Shown: one piece after another, positions 5,785 to 59,447 of the stretch
How the letters are laid out: each line of letters starts with the position of its first letter
Position numbering within the stretch: the stretch's first letter is position 1
DNA from: an uncultured Ectothiorhodospiraceae bacterium
GTDB taxonomy: Bacteria > Pseudomonadota > Gammaproteobacteria > UBA9214
Assembly (NCBI GenBank): GCA_964443845.1
Contig: CAYUFA010000009.1
Location: forward strand, 218-64,217
DNA: 64,000 nucleotides
Reading direction: 5' to 3'
The notes under the pieces: generated by a model
Database searches by the model: none
What the model was told of the DNA's origin: nothing
What the model saw: only the letters and a program-made list of their open reading frames with translations
Made by a program: the position numbers and the translations under genes

Positions 5785-6023
5785 TCGACGCGTCTTCGTT
5801 TCTCACCGCAAGGCGCGCCGTCCGGACGCGGATTCTCTGCGCTGGATACGCGGTTGCGAAGGTGACGCCCGGCTCTCCGGTGCGGCGGACCATCTTGTTG
5901 CGGGCTCGCGGGCGCGGCTTCACGGCCGTTGACCGGGATTAATCAAAACAGGAGGCGGGCCCGGCCCATGCTGCCGCGCGGCCGTCCATACGGGTCGTTC
6001 GGCATCAGACTGGTGACAGTGCC

Positions 6024-6644
6024 ATGCGCTATCAGGGAAAGATTACGGGATGGAAAGACGGTCAGGGTTTCGGGTTTGTCACGCCACACGGGGGCGGGGA
6101 TAAAGCCTTCGTTCACATAAAGGCGTTTGAGAGGCGATCAAGAAGACCTGCCGAGGGAGACATTATCACCTATGAGGTTGCCGTTGACGGAAAGCGCCGG
6201 CTGCGTGCGACCAGGATCCGGTTTTCCCGTGACATCCGGGATACTGCACCAGGCCACAAAGAAAGTTCCCCGGGCATGTACTTTTGCGCAATATTTTGCG
6301 CCCTGTTATTACTGGCCTCGATTCTCGGAAAACTTCCTGTGATCGTACCGGCTGTCTATGGCGCGGCAAGCGTTGTTGCATTTGTCGCATATGCAATGGA
6401 TAAATCAGCCGCCAGAAACAATCGCTGGAGAACCAGTGAGGCCACGTTGCACCTGCTCGCAATCGTTGGGGGCTGGCCGGGCGCATTGCTCGCCCAGAAG
6501 AAACTTCGCCACAAATCCCGAAAAAGGGAATTTCAGACTGTTTTCCGGGTTACGGTGGTCCTGAATTGTTGCCTGCTGGGCTGGCTTTTCACGGAGCGTG
6601 GTGCGTCATTTCTCAACTCCGCCCTTCAGCAGCTTGTTGAATAA
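6024..6644 (+). CDS. cold-shock domain / DUF1294 fusion membrane protein
   Basis: N-terminal CSD (GKITGWKDGQGFGFVTP...AFVHIKAF) followed by TM segments and the KKLRHKSRKREF DUF1294-type region. Confidence 0.75.
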   Translation: MRYQGKITGWKDGQGFGFVTPHGGGDKAFVHIKAFERRSRRPAEGDIITYEVAVDGKRRLRATRIRFSRDIRDTAPGHKESSPGMYFCAIFCALLLLASILGKLPVIVPAVYGAASVVAFVAYAMDKSAARNNRWRTSEATLHLLAIVGGWPGALLAQKKLRHKSRKREFQTVFRVTVVLNCCLLGWLFTERGASFLNSALQQLVE

Positions 6645-8620: not shown

Positions 8621-8934
8621 CCTCATTCCGCGTTCGCGTTTGTCTCGTCGGGCGTGAGAATGGCTTCGGGAACGCCTGACATCGACGGTGGTCACACGAT
8701 GCACAGCCGCTGTGGAAGGGTTCGCCGGAATTCAGTCCGGGAGACCGTAACATCGTTAAGGCAACCCGGAACAGGGCATCAGGTAATATCCGGTGTGCGG
8801 ACCTGTCCAGGCAGATGACCGAACCCATGGACAGTCTGCAATCGATTCAGCGCAGGGTGGCTGCGTCAGGGGGGGTGGCGCAGGGTGCCGGCACGATACC
8901 GGTCAATGACAGATCAACAAGACAGAGGAAAGCC

Positions 8935-9960
8935 ATGCACGAGCCACTCGATCCTTCCTATATCATGCAGACCGCGACCGCCTTCTGGGCGTCGAAAGTC
9001 CTGTTGACCGCGGTGGAACTGGAAGTATTCTCCACCCTGGGAGACGGTAACCTGACCGCAACGCAACTCGGCGCCACCCTGGGGCTGCATCCCCGCGGGA
9101 TCTACGATTTTTTTGATGCACTCGTGGCCCTGAAGTTTCTGGAGCGGGATGGAGACGGCCCGGAAGGGAAATACAGAAACACGCCCCAGACAGCGGCGTT
9201 TCTGAACAGGAACAGCCCTGCGTATATCGGTGGCCTGCCGGAGATGCTGAATTCCCGCCTGTTCGGGTTCTGGAACGAACTCGGCACGGCCCTGAAAACC
9301 GGCAGACCGCAGAATGAAACCCGGCATGGCGGCAAGTCGGTCTTCGAGGAGCTGTACGGGAACCAGGCCTCCCTGGGCGAGTTTCTCGATGCCATGACCG
9401 GATTCCAGGCGGCCAACTTCACTGCGCTGGCGGAGAAGTTCGACTTCACGAAATACCGCACGGTCGGCGACGTGGGTGGCGCCCTGGCGCTGCTGTCCCG
9501 GATCATCGCTGCACGCCACCCGCACCTCACGTTCACCAGTTTCGACCTCCCGCCGGTGAAGCCGCTTGCGCAGGAGAAGATCAGGGCAGCGGGCATGGAA
9601 GGACGCATCACGGCGGCGGCGGGAGATTTCTTCGCGGATGACCTGCCGAAGGCGGACGTGGTCACCATGGGCAACATCCTGCACGACTGGGATCTCGAAA
9701 AGAAAAAGATTCTGATCGGGAAGGCCTATGCGGCATTGCCGCCCGGCGGAGCATTCATCGCGATCGAAAACGTGATCGATGATGCCCGCCGGGAAAATGC
9801 CTTCGGGTTGCTGATGTCACTCAACATGCTGATCGAGTTTGGCGATGCCTTCGACTACACCGGTGCGGATTTCCGCAACTGGTGCGGGGCTGCCGGCTTT
9901 CAACGTTTTGATCTCATCCGGCTGGCCGGTCCGACCAGTGCCGTAATTGCCTACAAGTAA
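8935..9960 (+). CDS. class I SAM-dependent O-methyltransferase (Methyltransf_2 type with dimerisation domain)
   Basis: VGDVGGALALLS glycine-rich SAM motif, FDLP, DFF and NILHDW motifs typical of plant/bacterial O-MTs. Start at MHEPLD. Confidence 0.8.
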   Translation: MHEPLDPSYIMQTATAFWASKVLLTAVELEVFSTLGDGNLTATQLGATLGLHPRGIYDFFDALVALKFLERDGDGPEGKYRNTPQTAAFLNRNSPAYIGGLPEMLNSRLFGFWNELGTALKTGRPQNETRHGGKSVFEELYGNQASLGEFLDAMTGFQAANFTALAEKFDFTKYRTVGDVGGALALLSRIIAARHPHLTFTSFDLPPVKPLAQEKIRAAGMEGRITAAAGDFFADDLPKADVVTMGNILHDWDLEKKKILIGKAYAALPPGGAFIAIENVIDDARRENAFGLLMSLNMLIEFGDAFDYTGADFRNWCGAAGFQRFDLIRLAGPTSAVIAYK

Positions 9961-10063
9961 GGTAACCGCCGCTCCGGCCGCAGCGGCGACGCCACGGGGA
10001 GTGACCGGCAGGAGCGTTACAATACCGGGCAACCTTGCAGATAACCGTCGACAGGGGTGATCA

Positions 10064-20241: not shown

Positions 20242-20255
20242 TTGACGGTCGTCAA
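20242..20255. promoter_or_regulatory. FNR-type palindromic box TTGACGGTCGTCAA in hypC / hydrogenase-protease divergent promoter
   Basis: Perfect TTGAC-N4-GTCAA, 54-67 bp upstream of the protease ATG and about 75 bp upstream of hypC. Flanked by direct repeats GTCAATAAA(C/G)CATGG. Confidence 0.5.
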
Positions 20256-42720: not shown

Positions 42721-43255
42721 GCTACACAGCGCGCCCGGCAACGACCGCAGGCCACGGCGGGACGAAGCAATCTCGTGACGCAGCTGCAATGCTCAGGAGA
42801 TCCCTGCGCTGCGCCCGGGACGCCTGCAGCGGATTGCTGCGTCGGTACGTACTCGCTATGGCGCTGGCAGTTCTGCAAAGGATATTGGCCACGGATTGGC
42901 ACGGCAGCCAAATCATCGACCGCAGGGTGCGCCCTGCGGGTATCCGATAACCGCTGATGCGCTGCCTGTGGGCCACGCGTTTCGAGCAGGCAATTGCTGC
43001 ATGCGTCGTTTGCCCGATCCGGCCAGCACTTGCCGTGATCACGGCACGACCCGGAATGCGGGAAATCCCGCTAGTACAAATGTATTAATACAGTCGTGCT
43101 GCCTGCCAGACAGGTTTTCAATTTCCTGCCGATGTTACTGTGCGAGCACAGGCAAGCGGATTCACGCGGCTGCATCCTGTGCACCGCGACCGGTTAATCC
43201 ATCTTTCTGTGGTTCTTCTGAAGTTGATGAAAGCGCACCAGAGCGAGGCTGGACA

Positions 43256-43858
43256 TTGAAGACCAATTATTTGCTGATCGATTACGAAAATGTGCAGCCA
43301 AAGAGCTTGTCGGCATTGAACGGCCATCCGTTCAGGGTTGTCGTGTTCCTGGGCGCAAACCAGACGAAGGTGCCGCTCGATTTTGCGCGGGCGCTCCAGG
43401 CGCTGGGTGCGAACGCGGAATATGTCCAGATATCCGGCAGGGGACCAAACGCCGTCGATTTTCATATCGCCTTTACCATTGGCGAACTTTCCAAAGCGGA
43501 CCCGAATGCGTACTTTCACATCATTTCCGGGGATACCGGCTTCGATCCTCTGGTCGCGTATCTGAGGACGAAAGGAATCCCGGCGCAGCGGTCTGAAGCA
43601 GTCGCAGACGTACCAGGCCTCAGGGCGTCAAATGCCACGCCTCAGGAGGCGAAAGCTCAAGCCATCGTGCGCAACCTGGTCTCAAGAGGGAGTGGCAGGC
43701 CACGCAAGGTCAGGACGCTGTCCAACACGATCAATGCTATTTTCCAGAAATCGCTGGCGCCGAGCGAGTTGGCGAGCCTGGTCAGGGAGCTGGAGCGGCT
43801 TGGGCACATTTCGATAGAAGGCGAACATGTCAGTTATCGCTTTCAGGACATGCCCTGA
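43256..43858 (+). CDS. NYN-domain (PIN-like) putative ribonuclease
   Basis: LLIDYENV and IISGDTGFDPLV acidic motifs of the NYN/LabA fold. TTG start with GAGG RBS. Lies in a lower-GC islet. Confidence 0.5.
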   Translation: MKTNYLLIDYENVQPKSLSALNGHPFRVVVFLGANQTKVPLDFARALQALGANAEYVQISGRGPNAVDFHIAFTIGELSKADPNAYFHIISGDTGFDPLVAYLRTKGIPAQRSEAVADVPGLRASNATPQEAKAQAIVRNLVSRGSGRPRKVRTLSNTINAIFQKSLAPSELASLVRELERLGHISIEGEHVSYRFQDMP

Positions 43859-43939
43859 CCACTGCTGTCCCGTATAAATCCGTTGAACGATCAGCAAATC
43901 CTTCACTATGCACAGCCTTGCAGGTGATTAGCCAGGCCA

Positions 43940-44012
43940 TGAAATTCAGCACCGGCTGTACAAACCTTGCGTCCCTTCTCCCGGAGGGAGAGGGATTTGT
44001 GGGACAGCAGTG
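43940..44012 (+). repeat. 74-bp hairpin-containing intergenic repeat, copy A
   Basis: About 95% identical to 51072..51145. Contains TGTACA and a CCCTTCTCCC-GGA-GGGAGAGGG stem-loop. Confidence 0.8.
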
Positions 44013-44301
44013 TGCCCTGGCCAAAAAATGGATTGCCGGCAGACATCGATTGATCTGTTGCGTACAACCTGCCGGTGGGGCATCTTCCGTTTGCCCGGAT
44101 CGTCCTGCGAGCACGGCGAATCGAACGGTCCCGGCACCGTCACGCCGGGTGACATGGCGGGTTCTGCGGGTTTCCACCCGCACGACATGCCTGTAGTCTG
44201 TGCAATCGACTCGCCACTGGAGAAGGTGGGAATGTTATGCGAATTGTCGCTCACGAGTACGCATTCTATCGGTTCACCTGCAGATAGTCCGGTGTAAGAA
44301 T

Positions 44302-44913
44302 ATGGGAGAATACGCCAAATCAGTGGCACTGTTGCTGGTGCTCCTCAATCCCTTTCTGCTTGTCATCTATCTGACCGATATCGTTCAGAAGCTGGACCAG
44401 AGAACGTTCAATCGAGTCCTGGCGCGGGCCAGTGGTATTTCCATTGTTGCATTCTGTTGCTTTGCAATTCTCGGCGATGCCGTGTTCGTCCGTTTCATGC
44501 AGGTGGAGTTTGCATCGTTCCAGATATTCGGCGGAATTGTATTCCTGTTGATCGGGATCCAGTTTGTGTTCCGCGGGCCGGCCACGATTGAAATTCTGCG
44601 GGGAGAATCCAGACATATCGCAGGTGCCATAGCGATGCCCGTATTCATCGGTCCCGGCACGATCAGTGCCTGCATCGTCATCGGTAAAAGGCACGATCCA
44701 CTGACTGCATGTGCTCTGGTAACGATCGCGGTGCTGGTCTGCGCCGTCACGCTGGTTTTCCTGAAGGCACTTCACGACAGGGTAATCCCGCACCGGGAAG
44801 CCATCGTACAGAGATATATCGAGATTGCGGGAAGGGTTACGGCACTGGTCGTGGGTACGATCGCAATCGATATGGTGATGCGGGGTATTGGAACCTGGCT
44901 GACCAAGTACTAG
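44302..44913 (+). CDS. MarC family (UPF0056) integral membrane protein
   Basis: Six-TM protein with NPF/GPG patterns of the MarC family. Start at MGEYAKS. Confidence 0.7.
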   Translation: MGEYAKSVALLLVLLNPFLLVIYLTDIVQKLDQRTFNRVLARASGISIVAFCCFAILGDAVFVRFMQVEFASFQIFGGIVFLLIGIQFVFRGPATIEILRGESRHIAGAIAMPVFIGPGTISACIVIGKRHDPLTACALVTIAVLVCAVTLVFLKALHDRVIPHREAIVQRYIEIAGRVTALVVGTIAIDMVMRGIGTWLTKY

Positions 44914-45062
44914 CACCTGCCTCCCTGACATGCCGGATTGCGAGGAATTCATTTCCCGGCGCTGCAGTTGATGCATTCTGCGACAGGCTCCCGGCATTCC
45001 GCAGTTCTTCACTCTTGCAACGCTGACCTTGTCCTTGCGCCGGGAGTGTTCCTGGCTCGCCG

Positions 45063-45815
45063 CTATCCGCCGATCTTGCGGATGATCGACATGGCCGTGT
45101 CGTGCATCAGTTTGGAGATGTTCGAGAGCATCTGCAGCATCTGCTGCTGTTTCTGGACCTGGCTCTGCAGGTCCAGTTCGGCCAGGTTCGCGTCATACCC
45201 GGTTGTCCTGAGCTGTGACTCGAGGTGATGGATGTTCGCGTCGCCGGCCGCTATCGATGGCGGCGGATGTGGCGGGGTGAGGTGCGTGGCCGGCGACGGT
45301 GATACTTCCTGCGACTGCTCCGGGGCAGGGGTGCCGGCGCGTTGTCGCCGCGCCTGCTTCAGCTGCGCGCGCAGTTTTTTCTTCATCTCGTTGAAATGTT
45401 TCACCCTGCCGGCGTAGGACTTGAGGGCCTTGCTGGTTTCGAGATAGGAATCCCGGATCACCTGCTGCACCAGGGCGTCGATGTCGACCTGCCCTCCGCT
45501 ATCCGACCCGAGCTGGCGGATGAGCCGTGTCCAGCGGTGCTGGATTGTGGCATAGGACGGACTGCGTGCCAGCAAGTGGCTCATGGAGGCCAGTTCCGCC
45601 CGTTGTTGCGGCTTCAAGGCGCGCTTCAGGTAACCTTCCTGGGCGGGGGTGACGACCGGGGCCTGCAGGGACCCCTTACGGGCCGGCAGCGATTCTGCCG
45701 CGAACACGGGTGAACCCCCGGGAAGGAACCAGGCACCGGCCGGATCGCTGTTGCCGGGGTAACCGCCGGCGCTGGCGATAACAGCGGCCAGCGGCAATAT
45801 CTTGTATCTATGCAC
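45063..45815 (-). CDS. hypothetical periplasmic protein with Q-rich coiled-coil C-terminus
   Basis: Signal peptide MHRYKILPLAAVIASAGG. Pro-rich linker then KKKLRAQLKQARRQR. Confidence 0.4.
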   Translation of the reverse strand: MHRYKILPLAAVIASAGGYPGNSDPAGAWFLPGGSPVFAAESLPARKGSLQAPVVTPAQEGYLKRALKPQQRAELASMSHLLARSPSYATIQHRWTRLIRQLGSDSGGQVDIDALVQQVIRDSYLETSKALKSYAGRVKHFNEMKKKLRAQLKQARRQRAGTPAPEQSQEVSPSPATHLTPPHPPPSIAAGDANIHHLESQLRTTGYDANLAELDLQSQVQKQQQMLQMLSNISKLMHDTAMSIIRKIGG

Positions 45816-46389
45816 CTGATCCTCCAGCGTATTTGTTCAGTGGCAACCGGTGCGGGGGCCGCGGCCAGGTTGCCTGCACCCGGACCGGTCCTGCCTTGCT
45901 CCCAGGGCGGAGATGGTTTGTTGTGTACTGCGGAACCGTCCGCGCGTGGCACGGTGCGCCCGGTGTAACCCCGCACTGCGTACCGCCTGAAGCGGCGGTA
46001 CCGGCAGGCATGCCCCGTAGTTGCCCTTTGACGTGCCTGAGCCGCGTTCCTGCTGGTTTACATCCGCCGGGTTGTAGTCCCGCACTGTCCGACCGGCTGG
46101 CTACGAGCCCATCCGCCCGATGGCGCAACTCACGAAGGATTCTGCCTTCGCCTGTGCGGCCTGGATGCCTGCCGGCGAGCCCTGCTCCGGGTAGCCGGTG
46201 GCCAGCAGGGTTTCCACCAGCCGTGCGCGTCCATCGTCCGGCGCCGTCAGGGTGATGCGGCCGTTTTCGGTGTCGACCTGCACGTCGGAAACGGCCTCGA
46301 TGGCGGCCAGTGTACCCAACGGGACTGACCGGCGGCAAACCCCCCACCCTGGGAAATGGCTTGTTTCATCAAACGGTCATGGTCCTGTC

Positions 46390-46737
46390 ATGCGGATGCA
46401 ATGCGCCCCGGGCAAGGTGGCGGCACTGCTACCGAAGGGAGGTACCGCCATGTTGAGCTACATCCTGCAAAAGGCGCAGCAGTTCGAACGGGACTTCGGC
46501 GTTGCGCCCACCGTCGTCTACATCAACCCGCGGCACTACGCCGCCCTGTACCGGGAAAACCCGCACCTCTTCGCACCCGATCTGGACATCCGCCTGGGCT
46601 TCCGGCTGGCCATCGTGCCTGCTTCCGCGCTGAGCCATCCGGAGGCGGCGCTGGTCACGCATCCGGACGGCACGGGCGGGCGTGACCGGCAGGCGGATGC
46701 CCGGGCGCCGGTTGCGGACACGCGCAACGTGGCCTGA
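46390..46737 (+). CDS. hypothetical small protein
   Basis: High GC3 frame. Alternative start at 46450. No family recognised. Confidence 0.3.
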   Translation: MRMQCAPGKVAALLPKGGTAMLSYILQKAQQFERDFGVAPTVVYINPRHYAALYRENPHLFAPDLDIRLGFRLAIVPASALSHPEAALVTHPDGTGGRDRQADARAPVADTRNVA

Positions 46738-46756
46738 TGTCGTGTGGATGGCCCGG

Positions 46757-47950
46757 TTACCCGGGCTGGCCGTCCACGCGGGGCCGGGCCAGTATGGGCA
46801 GGAAGCGGACCAGGAACAGGGCGAAGGCCAGCAGCCACAACAGCTGGGCCAGGCCCACCCAGTCCCGGTACCAGGCCGGTGCCAGCAGTGGCAGCAGCAC
46901 ACGCACCGCAGTAGCGGCCAGCAGCAGGGTGAAGGCCACGAACAACACCGCCGGTGGTTCAGCCACGTCGCGGCCGGTATGTCCCAGCGAGACGCGGGCC
47001 ATCATGCCGAGCGTGATCATGCCGATGCCACCCACGGCGAAGGCATGCAGCGACAGCAGCGGTGACACGCCCAGGGCCACCGCCGCCTTCAGGGCAAAGC
47101 CGGCGACGATCCAGCCATAGCCCAGGTACAGCACCCATAGCAGCGGCCGGGTCCAGATTCCCGGGGTGTACCAGCCGGCCAGCTTCACGCTGTGCACCAG
47201 GGTCAATGCCAGCGCCAGCACGAACACGGGCGCGGTATCCGGCCGCGCCAGGTCGGCCAGCCAGAAGGCCAGGAACAGGGCCAGTCCCGTGCCATCGAGC
47301 CAGGGGCGGCTGGCCAGGCGGACGGCGAAGCCGACGCCGCGCTCGATGAAAAAGGGAAATACCCGGCTGGCCATGACGAGGATGAGCGCGATCACCAGAT
47401 ATACGCCCGAGTACAGCCCGAGCCGCACGCCATCCGCCACCAGCCCCTGCAGGCCGGCGTAGAACACGAGGTTGCTGGCCAGCAGCAGGACCAGTTTCGA
47501 CAGGATACCGAGCTGTTTCCACTGCCGGGCCCGGAGGACCGGCACCAGCAGGCTGACGATCAGTCCGAGTTCGAACGCGCCGTCGAACAGCACCTGCAGG
47601 GGCAGGGTGCCCGGCGCATCGAAAAAGAACAGTACACGCGCCGCCAGCCAGGCCAGCGCCAGCAGGAGCAGCGGATAGCCCCGCAGCGTCTGGATACCGG
47701 TCCAGTTGCGTACGGCCGTCAGCAGGAAGCCGGCGATGACGGCCATGCCGTAGCCGAAGATCATTTCATGCGCATGCCAGATGACGGGGGTGAGTGACGG
47801 CGATGCGGGATGCCAGCCCGCCTGGTACATCGCGGTCCACGCCAGCATCGCGAGCAGCGAGTACCCGGCCGCGGCGCTGAAAAACAGGCGGAAGCCCAGG
47901 TTCAGGATCGCCGGGTACCCGGCTGGCACCGCGGTGTCGGAAGCCGGCAC
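46757..47950 (-). CDS. nnrS: NnrS family heme-copper membrane protein (NO-stress response)
   Basis: 12-TM protein with NnrS conserved His pattern. Start is 3 nt after the tauD-like stop. Confidence 0.85.
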   Translation of the reverse strand: MPASDTAVPAGYPAILNLGFRLFFSAAAGYSLLAMLAWTAMYQAGWHPASPSLTPVIWHAHEMIFGYGMAVIAGFLLTAVRNWTGIQTLRGYPLLLLALAWLAARVLFFFDAPGTLPLQVLFDGAFELGLIVSLLVPVLRARQWKQLGILSKLVLLLASNLVFYAGLQGLVADGVRLGLYSGVYLVIALILVMASRVFPFFIERGVGFAVRLASRPWLDGTGLALFLAFWLADLARPDTAPVFVLALALTLVHSVKLAGWYTPGIWTRPLLWVLYLGYGWIVAGFALKAAVALGVSPLLSLHAFAVGGIGMITLGMMARVSLGHTGRDVAEPPAVLFVAFTLLLAATAVRVLLPLLAPAWYRDWVGLAQLLWLLAFALFLVRFLPILARPRVDGQPG

Positions 47951-47953
47951 GGT

Positions 47954-48886
47954 TCAGCTGCGGGCCACGCGCTGGTAGTAGCGCAAGCGGAAGAGCTGGC
48001 GCTTGCAGTGGTCGCTGTCGGTGAACCCGCTGCGGTCATGCAGGACGTTGTTGCAGATGAGTCCCTGGCCGGCCTGCAGGGTGGCGCGGAAGATGTAGGG
48101 GGAGTCCGACTGCAGCAGGGCATCCAGCGCGTCCAGCGCGGCGCGCACCAGCGGATCGGGCGCCCACTCGATGCTGCGGGTGCGCGCGGTATAGCGCATG
48201 TGCAGCTGTCCGTCGTCGCGGATCGAAAACACCGGCCCGGTCCGTGCCGGGCGCAGCTCCGTGTCTCCCGACTGGTTGGGGGGGATGGTCATGACGTCAG
48301 GCCGCATCAGCACGCGGATGAAATCCGGGTTGCTATCGCGCAGGTGCAGGTAGGCGATCTCGTGGTCGAGCAGGGCGTTGGCGCCACCGGTGGCTGCCGG
48401 GGAGGCACAGTGCAGCTGCAGTCCGTGAATCTGGCGCTCCGGCTCGTTGTAGTAGCCGTCGGTATGCCAGTGAATCGGACGATTGGTATACGGGATGTAG
48501 TCCGCCCGCCACTCCCCGTCCGCGACCTGCAGGGTCGAGATGCCATCGTCGTCTGCGCCCCGGTTGCGGTCCAGTGTGGTGAGGCCGCATTGCCGGCCCA
48601 GCACGGCCGGCAGCTGCCGGTCGCTGCCCGTATCGGCCTTGCAGTTATAGAGCGCCATGTTGGTGCGCCGGCAACGGTAGAGAATGGCGTCGTGCTCGAC
48701 CCGGGACAGCCGTGCCGGGTTCTTCACCTCGACCATCAGCTCGCCGATTCCGGCCGGGTAGCCGTTCAGCTTGTGCTCACGCCAGGTTGCATAGGCCTCC
48801 CGGTTGTCCGGGTCGAAGGGACTGCCCGCGTGCCGGCGGGGCGGGCTGGATCGGGTGGCAGGCTGGCAGGCGGGTTGAACGTGCAT
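47954..48886 (-). CDS. TauD/TfdA-family Fe(II)/2-oxoglutarate dioxygenase-like protein
   Basis: IHWHTDGYY HxD motif. Probable real start at MVEVKN (48736) by comparison with TauD N-terminal length. Confidence 0.55.
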   Translation of the reverse strand: MHVQPACQPATRSSPPRRHAGSPFDPDNREAYATWREHKLNGYPAGIGELMVEVKNPARLSRVEHDAILYRCRRTNMALYNCKADTGSDRQLPAVLGRQCGLTTLDRNRGADDDGISTLQVADGEWRADYIPYTNRPIHWHTDGYYNEPERQIHGLQLHCASPAATGGANALLDHEIAYLHLRDSNPDFIRVLMRPDVMTIPPNQSGDTELRPARTGPVFSIRDDGQLHMRYTARTRSIEWAPDPLVRAALDALDALLQSDSPYIFRATLQAGQGLICNNVLHDRSGFTDSDHCKRQLFRLRYYQRVARS

Positions 48887-48910
48887 GGTCCCGTTATAGG
48901 GTGCGGTTCC

Positions 48911-48924
48911 GGGGGGTGTCCTTG
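48911..48924. promoter_or_regulatory. FNR/DNR-type box TTGATCCAGGTCAA upstream of tauD-like/nnrS unit
   Basis: TTGAT-N4-GTCAA in the ubiH-like/tauD-like intergenic region. Confidence 0.5.
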
Positions 48925-49069
48925 ATCCAGGTCAACGCCGCCGGATCCCCGGCGACTTGCCGTGCCCGGGAAAGACGCCGGAACCGGCAAGGAATTCAGG
49001 TGGTTAGTGCGTCTTTCCTGCCATGCCCGGCACTCTGCCGGGACTCCGCCGCTGACGGCCGGTCGGCGG

Positions 49070-50302
49070 CTAGCGCAGGAACGGCAGGCGCAGGAAGAGG
49101 TTATTCGCGGCGTGCCGCTCGATGAGCTGGTTGGCGATCATGCGCTTGATTGGTGGGCAGTGGTTACCGAAGCGCAGCGCCAGTTTTCGCAACACCTTTG
49201 CCGGCGCCCGGTCATCCGTGAACAGGCCGACGATGTGGTTCGTTCCGGCATAGAGCGGCCGGGTCACGCGGCGCTGGGTCGACTGGTAGCGCTCCAGCAC
49301 GGCGGGTGCCCCGATATCGCCCCGCACGGCCCGGGCCCGGCGGATTTCCGCGGCCAGCGTGGCCTGGCCGCGCAAGCCCAGGTTGAAGCCATGCGCGGTG
49401 ACCGGGTGCATGCCGACGGCGGCATCGCCGACCAGGGCGCAGCGCCGGGCCACGAAGCGATTGGCATGCACGGCCACCAGCGGGTAGGCATGGCGCTGGC
49501 CCACCAGCTGCATCTCGCCCAGCCGGTCGTCGAAGCGCTGGCGGATATCGGCCGAAAACGTGTGCTCGTCCTGCGCCAGGATGGCATCCGCCTGGTCCGA
49601 TGACACGGTCACCACGATGGACGCCAGTTGCGGGCGCAGCGGCAGCACGGCCAGCGTCCGTCCGTAGTGGAAACACTCGAAGGCGATACCCCGGTTATCT
49701 CGCTCGTGCTGCATGCGGCAGACGATGGCCGCGCGGCCGAAGTCGTGCATGTCGGCGGAAATGCCCATCCAGCGCCGGGTCTGCGAGAACCGGCTGTCGG
49801 CGGCCACCAGCAGCGCGGCGCGCACGCTGCGTTCCCCGGACAGTTGTACGTGTGCGGCAGCCGCGTCCGTGTGCACGCCGCTCACGGTGGTGTCCGTGCG
49901 GATCTCGGTGCCGGGCAGGGTGAGTGCCTGTTCGATGAGTGCCCGGCGAATGTCATGGTTGGCGACCAGGAAACCCAGTGCGTCCACGCCGAATTTCGCG
50001 TTGTCGAAGTCCAGCACGTACGGGGAGGTGCCGTCCAGCACCTGCGCCTTGCGGATCGGGTGGATCGCCCCGGCCGGGATGCGTTGCCAGACGCCGAGCT
50101 GCTCCAGCAGTTGCCGGGACAGGTGCGTCAATGCGATATCGCGCCCGTCCGCTGCCGGGCAGCGCAGGTCCTCCAGGGAGTGCTGTTCGACGACCAGGGT
50201 GCGCAGGCCGCTGCCGGCCAGGGAGCAGGCGAGGCTGAGACCCGCCGGGCCTGCACCGTTGATGATGATGTCGAACTCGGTGTCTGTCGTTGCGTGGCTC
50301 AT
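49070..50302 (-). CDS. UbiH/UbiF/VisC/COQ6-family FAD-dependent monooxygenase
   Basis: IIINGAGPAGLSLA Rossmann motif, DG and GD(A/S)AH motifs (LVGDAAVGMHPVTAHGFNLG). ATG overlaps the stop of the Crp/Fnr gene. Confidence 0.8.
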   Translation of the reverse strand: MSHATTDTEFDIIINGAGPAGLSLACSLAGSGLRTLVVEQHSLEDLRCPAADGRDIALTHLSRQLLEQLGVWQRIPAGAIHPIRKAQVLDGTSPYVLDFDNAKFGVDALGFLVANHDIRRALIEQALTLPGTEIRTDTTVSGVHTDAAAAHVQLSGERSVRAALLVAADSRFSQTRRWMGISADMHDFGRAAIVCRMQHERDNRGIAFECFHYGRTLAVLPLRPQLASIVVTVSSDQADAILAQDEHTFSADIRQRFDDRLGEMQLVGQRHAYPLVAVHANRFVARRCALVGDAAVGMHPVTAHGFNLGLRGQATLAAEIRRARAVRGDIGAPAVLERYQSTQRRVTRPLYAGTNHIVGLFTDDRAPAKVLRKLALRFGNHCPPIKRMIANQLIERHAANNLFLRLPFLR

Positions 50303-50991
50303 TTCGATGTGTACCCTGCGTCGAGTTGGTGGATGTCCGGGATATGGATGATATTGCCTTCCACGCGTACCAGTCCGGCATTCTGCAGGTTGCGCAGGAT
50401 GCGTGACAGTGATTCCGGCTGGATCGAGAGACGCGAGGCAATGACATGCTTGGGTGCAGCCAGTTCGATGCTGATGTCGAACTGCTGGCCGGGCGGTGCC
50501 TGCTGCAACAGGAAATTGGTAAAGCGCAGGGAAGCATTCTGCAACGTCAGCGCGTGGATATCGTTGAGCTGCCGCTTCAGCCACGTGCTCATGTCGGCCA
50601 TGAGCCGGAAGCAGGTGTCGGTGGACTCGCGCAGGATTCCCCGGAAGGCGGAGTTGGAGAAGGCCAGGACCTCGGTCTTGCCCAGTGCGCTGGCATTGAC
50701 CGGGTAGCGCTCTCCGTCCATGAAGGTGATGGCCTCGGCGAAGGTTTCGCCCGGCGCCACGAGGTGCAGCACCTTCTCGGCGCCATCGGGGGTGGACAGG
50801 AACAGCCGGACCGATCCTTCGCGCACCAGGAAAAAGTGTCGTGCCGGTTGCTGGCTGGCAAACAGCAGCTGGCCATCGTCGAGGTGTTGCTGGTACGCGC
50901 TCTGCAGCAGCCGTGACATCTGTCTGTCATCGAGACCGGCGAACAGGGGGTGGCGGCGCAGCTCCTGCTGCAATTCCTGGTTCTGGTGCAT
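50299..50991 (-). CDS. Crp/Fnr family regulator, DNR/NNR type (no N-terminal Cys cluster)
   Basis: cNMP-like sensor domain, HTH with E--SR recognition motif (QPESLSR), no FNR Cys cluster. Start at MHQNQELQ. Confidence 0.75.
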   Translation of the reverse strand: MHQNQELQQELRRHPLFAGLDDRQMSRLLQSAYQQHLDDGQLLFASQQPARHFFLVREGSVRLFLSTPDGAEKVLHLVAPGETFAEAITFMDGERYPVNASALGKTEVLAFSNSAFRGILRESTDTCFRLMADMSTWLKRQLNDIHALTLQNASLRFTNFLLQQAPPGQQFDISIELAAPKHVIASRLSIQPESLSRILRNLQNAGLVRVEGNIIHIPDIHQLDAGYTSK

Positions 50992-51071
50992 GGGCCGAGC
51001 ATACCCAATGTGCCGGGAAACTGCATGGGGGCCGGTCAGGTCCGGGTACATCGGTACCCGCTGGCAGGACC

Positions 51072-51145
51072 TGAAATTCAACACCGGCTGTACAAACCTT
51101 GTGTCCCTTCTCCCGGAGGGAGAGGGAGTTTGCGGGACAGCAGTG
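51072..51145 (+). repeat. 74-bp hairpin-containing intergenic repeat, copy B
   Basis: Matches 43940..44012. Lies about 80 bp upstream of the dnr-like gene start. Confidence 0.8.
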
Positions 51146-51206
51146 GCACAGGACGGAATCATCGTACTCGCAAGTCTGTCGCGCCGGGAATGGAGTCAGA
51201 AACCCC

Positions 51207-51220
51207 TTAACCGGGGTCAA
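51207..51220 (+). promoter_or_regulatory. NNR/DNR-type box TTAACCGGGGTCAA upstream of DUF2249 gene
   Basis: TTAAC-N4-GTCAA, about 100 bp upstream of the DUF2249 ATG. Confidence 0.55.
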
Positions 51221-51317
51221 GGCGGCCGTGGTGGCACCCTGACACAGTCCACGGCCGTGAAAATCACACCGGGACAGGCCGGGATACCCGCAGCCCGTCC
51301 CGTGACGGCGAGAGTCA

Positions 51318-51581
51318 ATGGCGCAGGAACAGGTACTCGATACCCGCCACATGAGCATGCCGGAACCCCTGCTCGCAGCGCTGGCCGCACTCGATGCGTT
51401 GCCGGCAGGCATGGTGCTGCGCCTGATCACGGAGCGTGATCCGTTGCTGCTGTACCCCCTGCTCGAGGCGCGCGGGTTGCACTGGACCCGACTGGGAGGC
51501 GGTGCGGACGGCTGGCAGATCCTGATCCGGCATACCGGTGACCACGCCGCGGGCGATGCCGGCGCGTCCGGGCAGCCTTAA
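51318..51581 (+). CDS. DUF2249-domain protein (denitrification-cluster associated)
   Basis: PEPLLAALAALDALPAGMVLRLITERDPLLLYPLLEARG matches the DUF2249 pattern seen next to nor/nnrS genes. Confidence 0.6.
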   Translation: MAQEQVLDTRHMSMPEPLLAALAALDALPAGMVLRLITERDPLLLYPLLEARGLHWTRLGGGADGWQILIRHTGDHAAGDAGASGQP

Positions 51582-51591
51582 CTCAGGTCAA
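51578..51591 (+). promoter_or_regulatory. NNR/DNR-type box TTAACTCAGGTCAA upstream of norC
   Basis: TTAAC-N4-GTCAA, about 65 bp upstream of the norC ATG. The TAA stop of the DUF2249 gene lies inside the box. Confidence 0.6.
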
Positions 51592-51648
51592 GGCCGGTGC
51601 CGGCCCCGGATACTAGTCTGCCGGGCAGACGGACGGTCAGGAGGACAT

Positions 51649-52083
51649 ATGAGCGGGACATTCACCAAGTCGATGGCGCGCAATATCTTTTACGGCGGCG
51701 CGGTATTTTTCTTTCTGCTGTTCGTTGCGCTGACCTTCGACACCACACGGGCACTGCCAGAACGCGACAACCGTGCAGCGATCACGCCGGTGGTGGCGCT
51801 GGGCAAGCGGATCTGGGAGGAGAACGACTGTATCGGCTGCCACACACTGCTCGGCGAAGGCGCCTATTTCGCACCGGAACTCGGTAACGTCTACACCCGC
51901 TTCGGCAACAGCAAGGAGGCGATCATGGCGTTCATCAAGAGCCGTCCGGAGCAAGGCATACCGGGCCGCCGCAGCATGCCGCAATTCCATTTCACCGACG
52001 AGGAACTGAATGCGCTGGCCGAGTTCCTCAAGTATTCATCCGAAATCAACACATCCGGATGGCCGCCGAACATCCAGGGCTGA
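51649..52083 (+). CDS. norC: nitric oxide reductase subunit C (cytochrome c)
   Basis: N-terminal TM anchor and CIGCH heme c motif. Confidence 0.9.
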   Translation: MSGTFTKSMARNIFYGGAVFFFLLFVALTFDTTRALPERDNRAAITPVVALGKRIWEENDCIGCHTLLGEGAYFAPELGNVYTRFGNSKEAIMAFIKSRPEQGIPGRRSMPQFHFTDEELNALAEFLKYSSEINTSGWPPNIQG

Positions 52084-53496
<1,413 letters not shown>

Positions 53497-53828: not shown

Positions 53829-54641
53829 ATGGACACCAGTAGCGCACGCAGTACCGCACCCGATGCCCTGCCCTATTACGAAGCGCAGGGCAACGAGGTG
53901 GCGTTGTTCGAGTATGCCTGGCGCCACCGGCTGCCCATGCTGATCAAGGGTCCGACCGGCTGCGGCAAGACGCGCTTCGTGCAGTACATGGCCGCGCGGC
54001 TGGGCCGGCCGTTGTACACGGTGGCCTGTCACGACGACCTGTCCGCGGCAGACCTCGTCGGGCGGCACCTGATCGGCGACCAGGGCACGTTCTGGAATGA
54101 CGGGCCGTTGACCCGCGCCGTACGCGAGGGTGCGATCTGCTATCTCGACGAAGTCGTCGAGGCGCGCAAGGACACCACCGTGGTGCTGCACCCGCTGACC
54201 GACGACCGGCGCATGCTGCCGATCGAACGTACCGGCGAGCAGTTGCAGGCACCGGCGGAGTTCATGCTGGTGGTGTCCTACAATCCCGGTTACCAGAACC
54301 TGCTCAAGGGTATGAAGCCGAGTACGCGCCAGCGCTTCGTGGCGCGGCGTTTCGATTTTCCGGCCCCGGACCTGGAAGAACGCATCCTGCAGGGCGAAAC
54401 CGGGATCGGTGCCGCACTCGCACGGCGCCTGGTGGTGCTGGCCGGAGCCCTGCGCAACCTCAAGGACCATGACCTGGAAGAAGCGGCCTCGACGCGGTTG
54501 CTGGTGTATGCCGCTACCCTGATCCATGGCGGATACGATGCGCTGGAGGCCTGCCGCTGTGCGCTGGTCGAGCCGCTGACCGATGACGAGGAGACGGCCG
54601 CCGCGCTGCTGGAGGTAGTCCATGCCAGCTTCGGTACCTGA
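53829..54641 (+). CDS. norQ: NorQ/NirQ/CbbQ AAA+ ATPase
   Basis: GPTGCGKT Walker A, DE Walker B (CYLDEV), CbbQ/NorQ C-terminal region. Confidence 0.9.
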   Translation: MDTSSARSTAPDALPYYEAQGNEVALFEYAWRHRLPMLIKGPTGCGKTRFVQYMAARLGRPLYTVACHDDLSAADLVGRHLIGDQGTFWNDGPLTRAVREGAICYLDEVVEARKDTTVVLHPLTDDRRMLPIERTGEQLQAPAEFMLVVSYNPGYQNLLKGMKPSTRQRFVARRFDFPAPDLEERILQGETGIGAALARRLVVLAGALRNLKDHDLEEAASTRLLVYAATLIHGGYDALEACRCALVEPLTDDEETAAALLEVVHASFGT

Positions 54642-55014
54642 GCAGCCGGCAGCCGGACAGTCACTCGCCGTGCTTGCCGAAGTCCTCTACCTGGCCAACC
54701 TGCTGCTGTTGCCGGGGATCGCCTTCCTGGTGCTGCTGGTGCTCTATTACCGGAACATCGGCCGTGCGGCGGCATTGCCTGCCGGTCACCTGCGGCAGAC
54801 CGTCGCCGCCAGCCTGTGGGCCGGTGCGCTGCTGGTGGTGGCCAATCTCAGCATCGTGTTACTGGGCGGCTATCGCAGCCCGCATACCTGGGTGGTGGTG
54901 ATCATCTACTTCACCACCTGCCATTCCACGCTGGTATTGCTGGGTGTGCTGGGCCTGGCGCGTGCCCTGGCCGGACAACCGTTCCGGTATCCACTGATCG
55001 GCAGGCCGCTCTGA
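54622..55014 (+). CDS. small integral membrane protein in norE/F position
   Basis: 130 aa with about 4 TM. Overlaps the norQ 3' end by 20 nt. No family recognised. Confidence 0.4.
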   Translation: MPASVPEQPAAGQSLAVLAEVLYLANLLLLPGIAFLVLLVLYYRNIGRAAALPAGHLRQTVAASLWAGALLVVANLSIVLLGGYRSPHTWVVVIIYFTTCHSTLVLLGVLGLARALAGQPFRYPLIGRPL

Positions 55015-57807: not shown

Positions 57808-57815
57808 GTTGACCC

Positions 57816-59447
57816 GTGTCAAGGTCCGGCCGGAAACTGAGCAGCGGGTTGCGTGGAGCCGATCCACACGGGGGCAGCCTGCAGCACGGAAATTCACTCC
57901 ATGCGCCGCGGTGCCGGCGCCATGCGCTGCCGGCCTGCCTGCTGGTGGCGCTGCTGTCGTGGTGGCAGCCGTGCGCTGCCGCCACGGTCGAGGCCCTGGC
58001 CCGGCAGTATTTTCCGCAGGCCGATCGTGTCGGACCGTTCGAGGGTGACCCGCTGGCGGCCGCGGTCTACCGGCAGGACCGGCTGCTCGGTTACGTGCTC
58101 CGCACCACGGACGTTGCACCGATCCCGGCCTATTCGGGCAAGCCAATCACGCTGCTCGTGGGCGTGGACGTTGCCGGCCACATCACCGGCCTGGAGGTGA
58201 CCCGGCACTCCGAGCCGATCCTGGTGATCGGCGTATCCGACCAGGACCTGCGACATTACGTCGACCAGTACCGCGGCGTATCGGTGCGCAAGCAGGTGAA
58301 GATCGGCGGCGCACCGCGCGAGGGCTATGTCACCATCGACGGCATATCCGGCGCCAGCATCACCTCCATGGTCATGAATGCCACGGTGATGAAGGCGGTG
58401 CAGAAGGTGGCCGCAGCGCGCGGCATTCCGGCACCTGCGGGTGACGCCGTGCCGGTGCCGGCGGGCGGGGACGCTACGCTGGAAGGCGCGCCGGTGGACG
58501 CCCCGGACTGGTGGCTCGGGAACCAGGAGGAGCCCTTCTGGGTGAACGTGTGGCGCGAACGTACCTGGCAGATCGTGGTCCTGTGCTGCGCGCTCGTCAC
58601 GCTGACCGTCATCCTGCTGTTCCAGGACTGGCTGGCGCGGCGTCCGCAGCTGCTGCGCAGGATACGCACCGGGTTCCTGCTGTTCACCTGCGGTTTCATC
58701 GGCTGGTATGCACTGGCGCAACTCTCGATTATCCACGTGCTGACGTTCATCAACGCGTTGCTGCACCAGTTCAGCTGGGAATCCTTCCTGGTCGATCCGC
58801 TGATTTTCATCCTCTGGGGGTTCGTGGCCCTGACGCTGCTGCTGTGGGGGCGCGGGGTGTATTGCGGCTGGCTCTGCCCGTTCGGTGCGCTGCAGGAACT
58901 GCTGTTCCAGATCGCGCAGCGTGCGGGCATGCGGGAGTACCGCCTGCCCGAAGTGGTGCATGAACGCCTGACCGCACTGAAATACGTGATCTTCGTTGCG
59001 CTGTTCGGCCTGTCACTGCAATCGATCGGTTATGCCGCGCAGGCAGCCGAGGTGGAGCCCTTCAAGACCGCCATCGTCATGCATTTCCTGCGTGACGGTG
59101 CGTATTTCTGGTACGCGGTTGCCTTGCTGATGCTGGCCGTGCTCAACCGCAAGTTTTTCTGCAAGTATCTGTGCCCGCTCGGTGCGGCCCTGGCGATTCC
59201 GGCACCGCTGCGGATTTTCGACTGGTTGCGCCGGCGCAAGGAATGCGGGCGCCCCTGCCAGATCTGCGCGGTCCAGTGCGAGGTGCATGCGATCCGTCCC
59301 ACCGGAGAGATCAACCCGAACGAGTGTCATTACTGCCTGGATTGCCAGGTGACCTACTGGGACAACCGCCAGTGTCCGCCGCTCGCGGAAAAACGCGTGC
59401 GGCGTGAAAAGAGCCGGGCGGCGCTCGAGCGCCTTGCCGGACAGTGA
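57816..59447 (+). CDS. NosR/NirI-family membrane protein (FMN-binding domain + polyferredoxin)
   Basis: FMN_bind motif TIDGISGASITS, 6 TM, CGWLCPFGALQE, and C-terminal Cys clusters. Shorter than canonical NosR. Confidence 0.7.
   Translation: MSRSGRKLSSGLRGADPHGGSLQHGNSLHAPRCRRHALPACLLVALLSWWQPCAAATVEALARQYFPQADRVGPFEGDPLAAAVYRQDRLLGYVLRTTDVAPIPAYSGKPITLLVGVDVAGHITGLEVTRHSEPILVIGVSDQDLRHYVDQYRGVSVRKQVKIGGAPREGYVTIDGISGASITSMVMNATVMKAVQKVAAARGIPAPAGDAVPVPAGGDATLEGAPVDAPDWWLGNQEEPFWVNVWRERTWQIVVLCCALVTLTVILLFQDWLARRPQLLRRIRTGFLLFTCGFIGWYALAQLSIIHVLTFINALLHQFSWESFLVDPLIFILWGFVALTLLLWGRGVYCGWLCPFGALQELLFQIAQRAGMREYRLPEVVHERLTALKYVIFVALFGLSLQSIGYAAQAAEVEPFKTAIVMHFLRDGAYFWYAVALLMLAVLNRKFFCKYLCPLGAALAIPAPLRIFDWLRRRKECGRPCQICAVQCEVHAIRPTGEINPNECHYCLDCQVTYWDNRQCPPLAEKRVRREKSRAALERLAGQ

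Follow-up and report, generated by a model that had tools for sequence, protein, structure and literature searches.

A predicted O2-dependent ubiquinone hydroxylase gene coupled to a dnr-like regulator gene, and an uncharacterised Fe(II)/2-oxoglutarate oxygenase gene coupled to nnrS, in a denitrification island of an uncultured Ectothiorhodospiraceae bacterium

Gene content and junctions of the locus

The DNA analysed here (the window) is a stretch of 64,000 nucleotides (nt) of a contig from an uncultured Ectothiorhodospiraceae bacterium, and all coordinates are positions within it unless another locus is named. The locus of interest, 46757–50991, contains on the minus strand, in this order, a dnr-like regulator gene, ubiM, a spacer, a gene for an oxygenase of the TauD/TfdA superfamily (tauD-like) and nnrS. 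This order, proposed in an initial annotation, is borne out by the open reading frames (ORFs) and by Pfam and NCBIfam domain assignments. The features are as follows.

50299–50991, minus strand: dnr-like gene, Crp/Fnr transcription activator of 230 amino acids (aa) from an ATG at 50991 (Pfam cNMP_binding and HTH_Crp_2)
49070–50302, minus strand: ubiM, predicted O2-dependent generalist flavin hydroxylase of ubiquinone biosynthesis (NCBIfam NF006593 and TIGR01988)
48922–48935, unstranded: FNR/DNR-type box, TTGATCCAGGTCAA on the plus strand and TTGACCTGGATCAA on the coding strand (pattern search and conservation)
48893–48898, minus strand: −10-like hexamer TATAAC, 23 nt past the box and 6 nt ahead of the tauD-like ATG (spacing conservation)
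47954–48886, minus strand: tauD-like gene, uncharacterised putative Fe(II)/2-oxoglutarate (2OG) oxygenase of the TauD/TfdA superfamily, 310 aa (Pfam TauD)
46757–47950, minus strand: nnrS, 397 aa, GTG start (Pfam NnrS)

The dnr-like stop codon and the ubiM start codon share an ATGA at 50302–50299, as had been noted. The tauD-like TGA (47956–47954) is followed by 3 nt (acc) and then by the GTG of nnrS at 47950; the 3-nt gap had been recognized, but the nnrS start had been taken for an ATG. The spacer between ubiM and the tauD-like gene is 183 nt long. NnrS is a full-length match to its family (PF05940, 342 bits over residues 15–391). There is no ubiU, ubiV or ubiT gene in the window, and an Rfam scan of 43000–52000 returned no RNA family.

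Conservation of the arrangement in relatives

Comparison with surveyed homologous loci (designated by L numbers) reveals conservation of the arrangement in close relatives. In L168, the UbiM of which is 89% identical to that of the window, dnr-ubiM (ATGA)-tauD-nnrS is divergent from DUF2249-norC-norB-norQ; the 3-nt gap between tauD and nnrS, the length of nnrS and the 230-aa length of the dnr product are the same as in the window. In L170 (UbiM 74% identical), a 230-aa dnr is followed after an 8-nt gap by ubiM, then by a box and by tauD up to the end of the contig, and the group is divergent from nirS-nosR-norD...norB-norC-DUF2249. L008 and L088 (75–76%) have the order ubiM-box-tauD-nnrS, without dnr. 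L008, a metagenome-assembled genome of an uncultured Ectothiorhodospiraceae bacterium, is the closest named genome, and its TauD-like protein is 75% identical to that of the window.

A tblastn search with the window Dnr gave no homologue in the first 167 surveyed loci; besides L168 and L170, where the gene was recovered, the other 160 loci have none, so the four-gene synteny is lineage-restricted. The linkage of dnr, a ubiH-like gene, a tauD-like gene and nnrS for which the initial annotation had proposed a search elsewhere is thus present in the nearest relatives, with all four genes in L168 and as many as the contig holds in L170, but not beyond them.

Promoter of the tauD-like and nnrS genes

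The box in the ubiM–tauD-like spacer had been placed at 48911–48924; it exists, but lies 11 nt away, at 48922–48935. It is the only intergenic match in the window to TTGAT-N4-ATCAA at one mismatch. Three matches to TTGAY-N4-RTCAA are present in the window where 0.11 would be expected, and as many as three were seen in 0 of 100 shuffles. At the same place, the box reads TTGATCTGGATCAA in L168 and TTGATCCAGATCAA in L170, both of which are perfect palindromes, and TTGATCCAGGTCAA in L008 and L088.

A layout of box, 22–23 nt, TATAAN, 6–8 nt and ATG is common to four lineages. In the tauD-like start region there is no other in-frame start before a conserved PFD motif, and no Shine–Dalgarno sequence. 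If transcription began at the tauD-like ATG, the box centre would fall at about −41.5/−42.5. Because this spacing is kept, and if TATAAN is the −10 element, the geometry suggests a class-II FNR/DNR promoter, of the kind known for FNR and CRP, and a leaderless or nearly leaderless mRNA that would start at or next to the ATG.

As the box lies downstream of ubiM, it would drive the tauD-like and nnrS genes only, and ubiM would ride on the dnr operon. The earlier description of two O2-dependent oxygenases wired into the dnr and nnrS units therefore holds, but not that of both lying under an FNR/DNR box. The spacer contains neither an intrinsic terminator nor a sigma-70 consensus promoter, and its hairpin is not convincing when compared with shuffles (z = −1.9); in view of the missing terminator between ubiM and the box, read-through from ubiM is possible.

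The two other boxes lie outside the locus. One (TTGACGGTCGTCAA, 20242–20255) lies between hypA/hypB-like genes on the minus strand and a hydrogenase maturation protease gene followed by hynS-isp1-isp2-type genes on the plus strand, which suggests FNR-type control of a putative hydrogenase cluster. The other (TTGACCCGTGTCAA, 57809–57822) lies at the junction of a gene for a VWA-domain protein, at the norD position, and a NosR/NirI-like gene that precedes nirS.

Identity of the flavin monooxygenase and control of ubiM

The monooxygenase had been assigned to the UbiH family. It has the class A flavin monooxygenase motifs IINGAGPAGLS (GxGxxG) and LVGDAAVGMHP (GD), both invariant in the homologue alignment, and so is a flavin adenine dinucleotide (FAD) monooxygenase as described. 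It is not UbiH, however: the UbiM model (NF006593) is passed with 538.7 bits against a cutoff of 420, as is TIGR01988 (383.5 bits, cutoff 224.65), whereas the UbiH, UbiF and UbiI models all remain under their own cutoffs. From these family matches the enzyme is UbiM, a generalist ubiquinone hydroxylase with predicted ring-hydroxylation activity.

Three other UbiM proteins have been shown to hydroxylate the ubiquinone ring at C1, C5 and C6; UbiM is scattered across the Pseudomonadota, is highly prone to lateral transfer and is possibly expressed under particular conditions only, its physiological niche and regulation having been left open (PMC10597321). The UbiMs of Neisseria meningitidis, Xanthomonas campestris and Roseomonas gilardii (Pelosi 2016; PMC10597321) share with the window protein the NCBIfam equivalog, the FAD motifs and membership of this scattered, transfer-prone group. 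Unlike these described examples, the window ubiM is translationally coupled to the gene of a DNR-like regulator.

Control of ubiM was surveyed in 79 metagenomic ubiM loci, 65 of which had sufficient upstream sequence for a scan for TTGAT-N4-ATCAA with ≤2 mismatches, centred 55–95 nt upstream of the FAD motif. An FNR-type box is present in 27 of the 65 (~40%), mostly centred at 68–77 nt, and 13 of these boxes have ≤1 mismatch. Shuffled sequences gave an expectation of 2.4, and control windows contained 4/61 and 0/61 boxes (Fisher p = 3e-6). The box-positive loci represent 19 of 32 UbiM clusters formed at 70% identity. Because boxes are enriched upstream of ubiM, this suggests that UbiM is the low-O2 version of the aerobic hydroxylases in many lineages; the window lineage would reach the same end by coupling ubiM to dnr. 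No paper tying UbiM to FNR or Anr was found in the searched literature. In three further lineages (L089, L093 and L126) nnrS adjoins ubiM in other gene orders, which in L093 is box-ubiM-nnrS.

Two other kinds of ubiM neighbour were identified by sequence reading. In the metagenome loci L090, L103, L106 and L121 the gene immediately upstream of ubiM is tyrosine phenol-lyase/tryptophanase-like, and TrhP-like U32 genes adjoin ubiM in L117, L126 and L134. These neighbours could point to a connection with the supply of ring precursors or with prephenate chemistry.

The DNR-like regulator and its upstream element

The best solved relative of the regulator is Pseudomonas aeruginosa DNR (3dkw; 133 bits, E 1e-37, full length), whose family senses nitric oxide, and the next family scores 88 bits. 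The protein has one Cys in total and lacks the N-terminal Cys cluster and Fe-S motif of FNR; it is therefore not an Fe-S regulator of the FNR/ANR type. Its recognition helix, PESLSR, aligns with PETFSR of DNR and contains the E--SR motif that reads TTGAT half-sites. One further feature adjoins the gene.

50992–51030, minus strand: conserved promoter-like element (CATGCAGTTTC...TTGGGTATGCTCGGCCC) directly upstream of dnr, kept in L168 and L170

In L088, which has no dnr, this element is found in front of ubiM instead, at about 6020–6060 of that locus and ~70 nt before the gene. Within it, an FNR-like palindrome, TTGAkTATGCTCAA, is present in L088 and in L170 (about 9270–9299, 3 nt before the dnr ATG); the palindrome is degenerate in the window and L168 (TTGGGTATGCTCGG). 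The element may be an autoregulation site or an ancestral ubiM promoter.

The TauD-like protein

The tauD-like product matches Pfam TauD with 73.6 bits (cutoff 27) and belongs to a family of ~297-aa proteins that comprises 313 clusters (50% identity) at E<1e-30. On a proper alignment of 82 family members, down to 36% identity, the HxD/His motifs of the initial annotation are present and invariant, namely H141-x-D143 and H283, together with R296. Further invariant residues are W35, K39, W140, R231, R235, W241, R285 and R300.

A first AlphaFold 2 model, built from 43 close homologues, was poor at residues 101–167 (predicted local distance difference test score, pLDDT, 64.5) and was replaced by one built from the 82 diverse sequences, with a pLDDT of 93.6. 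The nearest solved folds are those of TmpA, BBOX1, GlaH/CsiD and CarC, at 16–20% identity and template modelling (TM) scores of about 0.5–0.64; the best match in a search of the Protein Data Bank with the family profile had an E value of about 3e-5 (DfmD, TmpA). With TmpA, BBOX1 and GlaH/CsiD the protein shares the double-stranded beta-helix Fe(II)/2OG fold, the HxD...H triad, the 2OG-binding Arg and an HTD-x-x-Y-like motif. It differs from BBOX and TmpA in having no N-terminal domain and in its own set of invariant residues. None of the NCBIfam equivalogs comes near its cutoff, the best being TMLD (41 bits against 268), and identification as a taurine dioxygenase was rejected for want of an equivalog match or a close solved relative.

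Alignment and model together indicate that the protein is a predicted catalytically competent Fe(II)/2OG oxygenase with no close characterised relative. Since several arginines are invariant, an anionic small molecule is suggested as its substrate.

Genomic neighbours of the TauD-like family

Neighbours were surveyed among the best 80 of at least 598 species hits, together with metagenomic homologue contexts, by calling and clustering ORFs; counts are over 82 loci. The commonest neighbours are UbiT (21 loci), UbiU (19) and UbiV (19), all of which exceed the NCBIfam equivalog cutoffs. With UbiM, found in two loci, any of the four is present in 26 of the 82. At least six gene orders occur: ubiU-ubiV-tauD with ubiT convergent; tauD-ubiU-ubiV; tauD-rSAM-ubiU-ubiV, where rSAM denotes a radical S-adenosylmethionine (SAM) gene; ubiU-ubiV-ubiT<>tauD; ubiT<>tauD alone, as in Thiodiazotropha; and ubiM-tauD-nnrS. 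In nine loci the tauD-like gene lies within a few tens of bases after ubiV.

Strict FNR-type boxes are ~8-fold enriched in these loci (39 against 4.7 expected), where they are placed upstream of tauD-like genes, of ubiT and of rSAM-ubiUV-tauD operons, and at norC/hemerythrin promoters. The tauD-like gene has its own upstream box in 10 of 68 loci, against 2.6 expected. In Thiohalophilus thiocyanatoxydans DSM 16326 (L056), a stand-alone tauD-like gene has TTGATCTTCGTCAA upstream. The neighbourhood evidence favours a role for the putative oxygenase linked to quinone hydroxylation. Of the two functions suggested in the initial annotation, micro-oxic quinone hydroxylation fits both the identification of the monooxygenase as UbiM and the predominance of ubiU, ubiV and ubiT beside the TauD-like genes; nothing was found in favour of repair of damage by nitric oxide (NO).

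The radical SAM gene, of the YhcC/MnmL-YtqA type (TIGR01212, 383 bits), lies ahead of ubiU-ubiV in 11 loci of sulfur oxidisers and is frequently accompanied by a gene for a small SAM methyltransferase (examples are L017, L018, L020, L022, L031, L060, L072 and L085). In L031 and L060 an FNR box is present upstream of it. This context makes it a possible additional accessory gene of the anaerobic ubiquinone operon.

A different function for the TauD-like enzyme, in which it would serve NnrS and the NO response by acting on a nitrosative-stress metabolite and the ubi neighbourhood would reflect a shared anaerobic regulon, is considered unlikely. The tight coupling of the tauD-like gene to nnrS in the window and L168 agrees with such a function, as do their adjacency in L008, the NO-related genes in 11 of the 82 loci, the norCB genes of L022 and a convergent hemerythrin gene in L001 and L004. 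In L053 and L058, moreover, the tauD-like gene is the last of a hemerythrin-DUF2249-membrane protein-tauD operon that runs divergently from norCB, and the intervening region contains an FNR/DNR box. Against this, nnrS adjoins the tauD-like gene in the window lineage only and is elsewhere 2.5–7 kb away (L010, L017 and L031) or absent; ubi neighbours outnumber NO genes more than twofold; and the family, profile and fold comparisons revealed no similarity of the TauD-like protein to a known NO-related enzyme.

The membrane protein of L053 and L058 (at about 8670–9990, between DUF2249 and the tauD-like gene) is a polytopic protein of 438 aa with no Pfam or NCBIfam match. It was considered as a second NnrS-like partner, an idea that was dropped because BLASTP, Pfam and NCBIfam revealed no similarity to NnrS.

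The taxonomic range of the family also bears on its function. Sulfur oxidisers such as Thiodiazotropha, Thiomargarita, Sedimenticola, Thiobacillus, Sulfuricella and Chromatium account for almost all of the 80 best genome hits, and in 17 of the 82 loci, mostly from betaproteobacterial sulfur oxidisers, the tauD-like gene is located beside dsrAB/EFH, DUF6967, Cas6/Cmx6-like, DsrC/TusE, TusA or rhodanese genes; a 41%-identical member adjoins a Cas6-family gene. The family could thus belong to the sulfur metabolism of Dsr-type sulfur oxidisers, with a substrate that is, for example, an organosulfur compound or linked to a sulfur carrier, and its presence in the denitrification island would be incidental. 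This is thought quite improbable. Gaps of 450–860 nt to the DsrC-like gene in most such loci make co-transcription doubtful, similarity to the query biases the list of taxa, no equivalog of a sulfonate/sulfate-ester dioxygenase, TauD and AtsK included, is matched, and the conserved FNR/DNR promoter would be left unexplained.

Within these sulfur-gene contexts a trio of DUF6967, Cas6/Cmx6-like (TIGR02807, 147 bits) and DsrC/TusE genes recurs beside dsrAB/dsrEFH and the tauD-like gene (L024, L029, L034, L042, L043, L065, L068, L069, L071, L074, L075 and L086). The more distant member beside a Cas6-family gene is that of L171; a sulfur-relay context is an unusual one for a Cas6-like protein. Other recurrent neighbours, identified by sequence reading, have a housekeeping appearance: leuA, UDG, ppiD, an ABC-F ATPase gene and an Lrp regulator gene.

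The surrounding denitrification island

Divergent from dnr, the plus strand carries genes for NO reductase.

51207–51220, unstranded: imperfect FNR-like element TTAACCGGGGTCAA (TTGAC-N4-GTTAA), ~105 nt upstream of DUF2249-norC
51318–51581, plus strand: DUF2249 gene, divergent from dnr
51649–52083, plus strand: norC
52102–53496, plus strand: norB

These are followed by norQ, a 130-aa ORF, genes for a Fer4_5 protein and a VWA-domain protein (put at the norD position on grounds of position and domain), a NosR/NirI-like gene, nirS and a nirF-like gene. The motif CCTTGACyCCGGTTA is common to the window, L168 and L170, its distance to the DUF2249 gene does not vary among them, and the element at 51207–51220 is probably a nor promoter site, judging from this conservation. 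The 130-aa ORF (54622–55014, between norQ and the Fer4_5 gene) encodes a hydrophobic product with no family match; its size and position are kept in L168 and L170.

A 66-nt direct repeat, with its only two copies in the window at 43933–43998 and 51065–51130 (92% identical), brackets a 7.1-kb segment that contains MarC, two unassigned ORFs, nnrS, tauD-like, ubiM and dnr. The repeat could be an element like a repetitive extragenic palindrome (REP) or a miniature inverted-repeat transposable element (MITE), or a recombination scar.

Such a bracketed segment raises the question of whether the gene order has any functional meaning, or whether a transferred ubiM simply landed by dnr within a mosaic generated by recombination between repeats. 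The known mobility of UbiM (PMC10597321), the absence of dnr upstream of ubiM in L008 and L088 and the different region between nnrS and the NYN/beta-CASP genes in the window and L168 are consistent with a mosaic, as is the repeat itself. Nevertheless, the two couplings (ATGA and the 3-nt gap) and the promoter have been kept across lineages that have diverged to 74–75% protein identity, the adjacency of ubiM and nnrS arose independently in three other lineages, and the enrichment of FNR boxes at ubiM and TauD-like loci is far above chance. A meaningless juxtaposition is accordingly judged very unlikely.

Comparison with known systems

The ubiT-ubiU-ubiV genes encode an O2-independent ubiquinone pathway controlled by FNR/Anr (PMC6747719; PMC10470549; PMC11707229), FNR control of the ubiTUV loci being described in the last of these reports (PMC11707229). 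This O2-independent route is essential for denitrification in P. aeruginosa. In Hyphomicrobium denitrificans, ubiXDTUV forms a cluster with nor and nnrS and shares their regulation, and denitrification needs ubiquinol (bioRxiv 10.1101/2025.02.17.638619). The locus described here resembles that pathway in that genes for ubiquinone ring hydroxylation are found under FNR-type boxes and beside NO reductase and nnrS genes. It differs in that the predicted hydroxylase is the O2-dependent flavoprotein UbiM instead of the prephenate-dependent UbiUV, in that its gene is attached to dnr itself, and in the addition of a putative Fe(II)/2OG oxygenase foreign to the described UbiUVT pathway.

The dnr of Pseudomonas is not known to be coupled to a quinone hydroxylase gene, nor is a TauD-family gene known to precede its nnrS. 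In P. aeruginosa dnr is next to norCBD and nirS, and its boxes have the form TTGAT-N4-ATCAA (PMC1274295; 3dkw); the window shares both the location of the regulator gene beside nor and nir genes and the box consensus. A survey of the regulon lists nnrS as a member in several species and mentions no TauD-like or Ubi hydroxylase member (Rodionov 2005; PMC1274295). The searched literature, covering NnrS with TauD, UbiU/UbiV with TauD, and Thiobacillus denitrificans with TauD, contained nothing relevant.

An oxygenase behind an anaerobic regulator, which had been put forward as unexpected, is not paradoxical, because such regulators act at the oxic–anoxic transition, where traces of O2 remain. The hemF gene encodes an O2-dependent coproporphyrinogen oxidase. 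Anr boxes upstream of qor/hemF are conserved in Pseudomonas (PMC6588701). In hemF there is thus an earlier case of an O2-dependent oxygenase of biosynthesis behind the box of an anaerobic regulator, presumably so that it can function at very low O2, albeit in another pathway (heme) and of another enzyme class. Together with the clustering of ubi, nor and nnrS in H. denitrificans, where the route is O2-independent, this weakens the claim of unexpectedness. The suggestion that the module had not been described has fared better, as no paper describing it was found in the searched literature.

Proposed working of the locus

The interpretation proposed here, to which a probability of roughly 55% is attached, is that the locus is a quinone-supply and NO-protection arm, controlled by low O2 and NO, of the denitrification island of an Ectothiorhodospiraceae-like sulfur-oxidising gammaproteobacterium. 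The minus strand would carry two operons, dnr-ubiM, coupled by ATGA, and tauD-like-nnrS, coupled by TGA-acc-GTG and with its own class-II promoter. At low O2 and in the presence of NO, DNR, or an FNR/ANR protein of the cell with like sites, would activate the box, yielding the TauD-like oxygenase and the NO-protective membrane protein NnrS. UbiM would be made along with DNR, so that ubiquinone synthesis could continue from traces of O2 at the oxic–anoxic interface, and ubiquinone would pass electrons via bc1 to NirS and NorCB.

The TauD-like enzyme, for its part, may be induced at low O2 and hydroxylate a small anionic metabolite, with a functional link to the synthesis of quinones. The tie to quinones is proposed because ubiM is often boxed and because the TauD-like gene is typically last in ubiU-ubiV operons or beside ubiT.

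Several observations weigh against this interpretation. Fe(II)/2OG enzymes depend on O2, and NO inhibits them, which is awkward for expression during denitrification. The 327 nt upstream of the window dnr hold no FNR-type box at ≤2 mismatches. H139 and H187 of P. aeruginosa DNR, the proposed heme ligands of that protein, correspond to K and R in the window protein in the 3dkw alignment; for this reason the same NO-sensing mechanism cannot be assumed, and the regulator is named DNR-like. Boxes upstream of ubiM are not universal, being absent from a genome of Sedimenticola and from a second long contig (L174 and L176). As for the TauD-like family, to the 17 loci with sulfur genes must be added that about half of all loci are in housekeeping contexts and that distant members adjoin Cas6 or yidC.

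A wider generalization takes in both oxygenase families. UbiM would be the dedicated low-O2 ubiquinone hydroxylase of many Pseudomonadota under FNR/DNR-type regulators, and the TauD-like family would be an Fe(II)/2OG component of ubiquinone biosynthesis at the oxic–anoxic interface, for example a hydroxylase of high O2 affinity, or an enzyme of the head group or its precursors, alongside UbiUVT or UbiM. With both parts taken together, this is put forward tentatively and must be regarded as doubtful.

Significance

Co-regulation of ubiquinone synthesis with denitrification was already known. What is new here is the attachment of an O2-dependent UbiM to dnr, and the location of an uncharacterised putative Fe(II)/2OG oxygenase at the head of an nnrS operon; both oxygenase families are often found behind low-O2 promoters, of which no description was found in the searched literature. 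The locus thus offers two leads, FNR/DNR control of ubiM and an oxygenase family tied to low-O2 quinone genes.

In denitrification ubiquinone serves as the electron hub, and how it is synthesized across the whole range of O2 is being actively investigated. What part the scattered, transferable UbiM plays has been described as a puzzle, and conditional expression has been proposed (PMC10597321). The locus and the enrichment of boxes upstream of ubiM suggest a testable answer, that UbiM may be an enzyme of hypoxia or denitrification. In addition, a large uncharacterised Fe(II)/2OG family, found mostly in sulfur oxidisers, is nominated as a possible low-O2-regulated partner of the quinone hydroxylation genes and as a candidate for enzymology.

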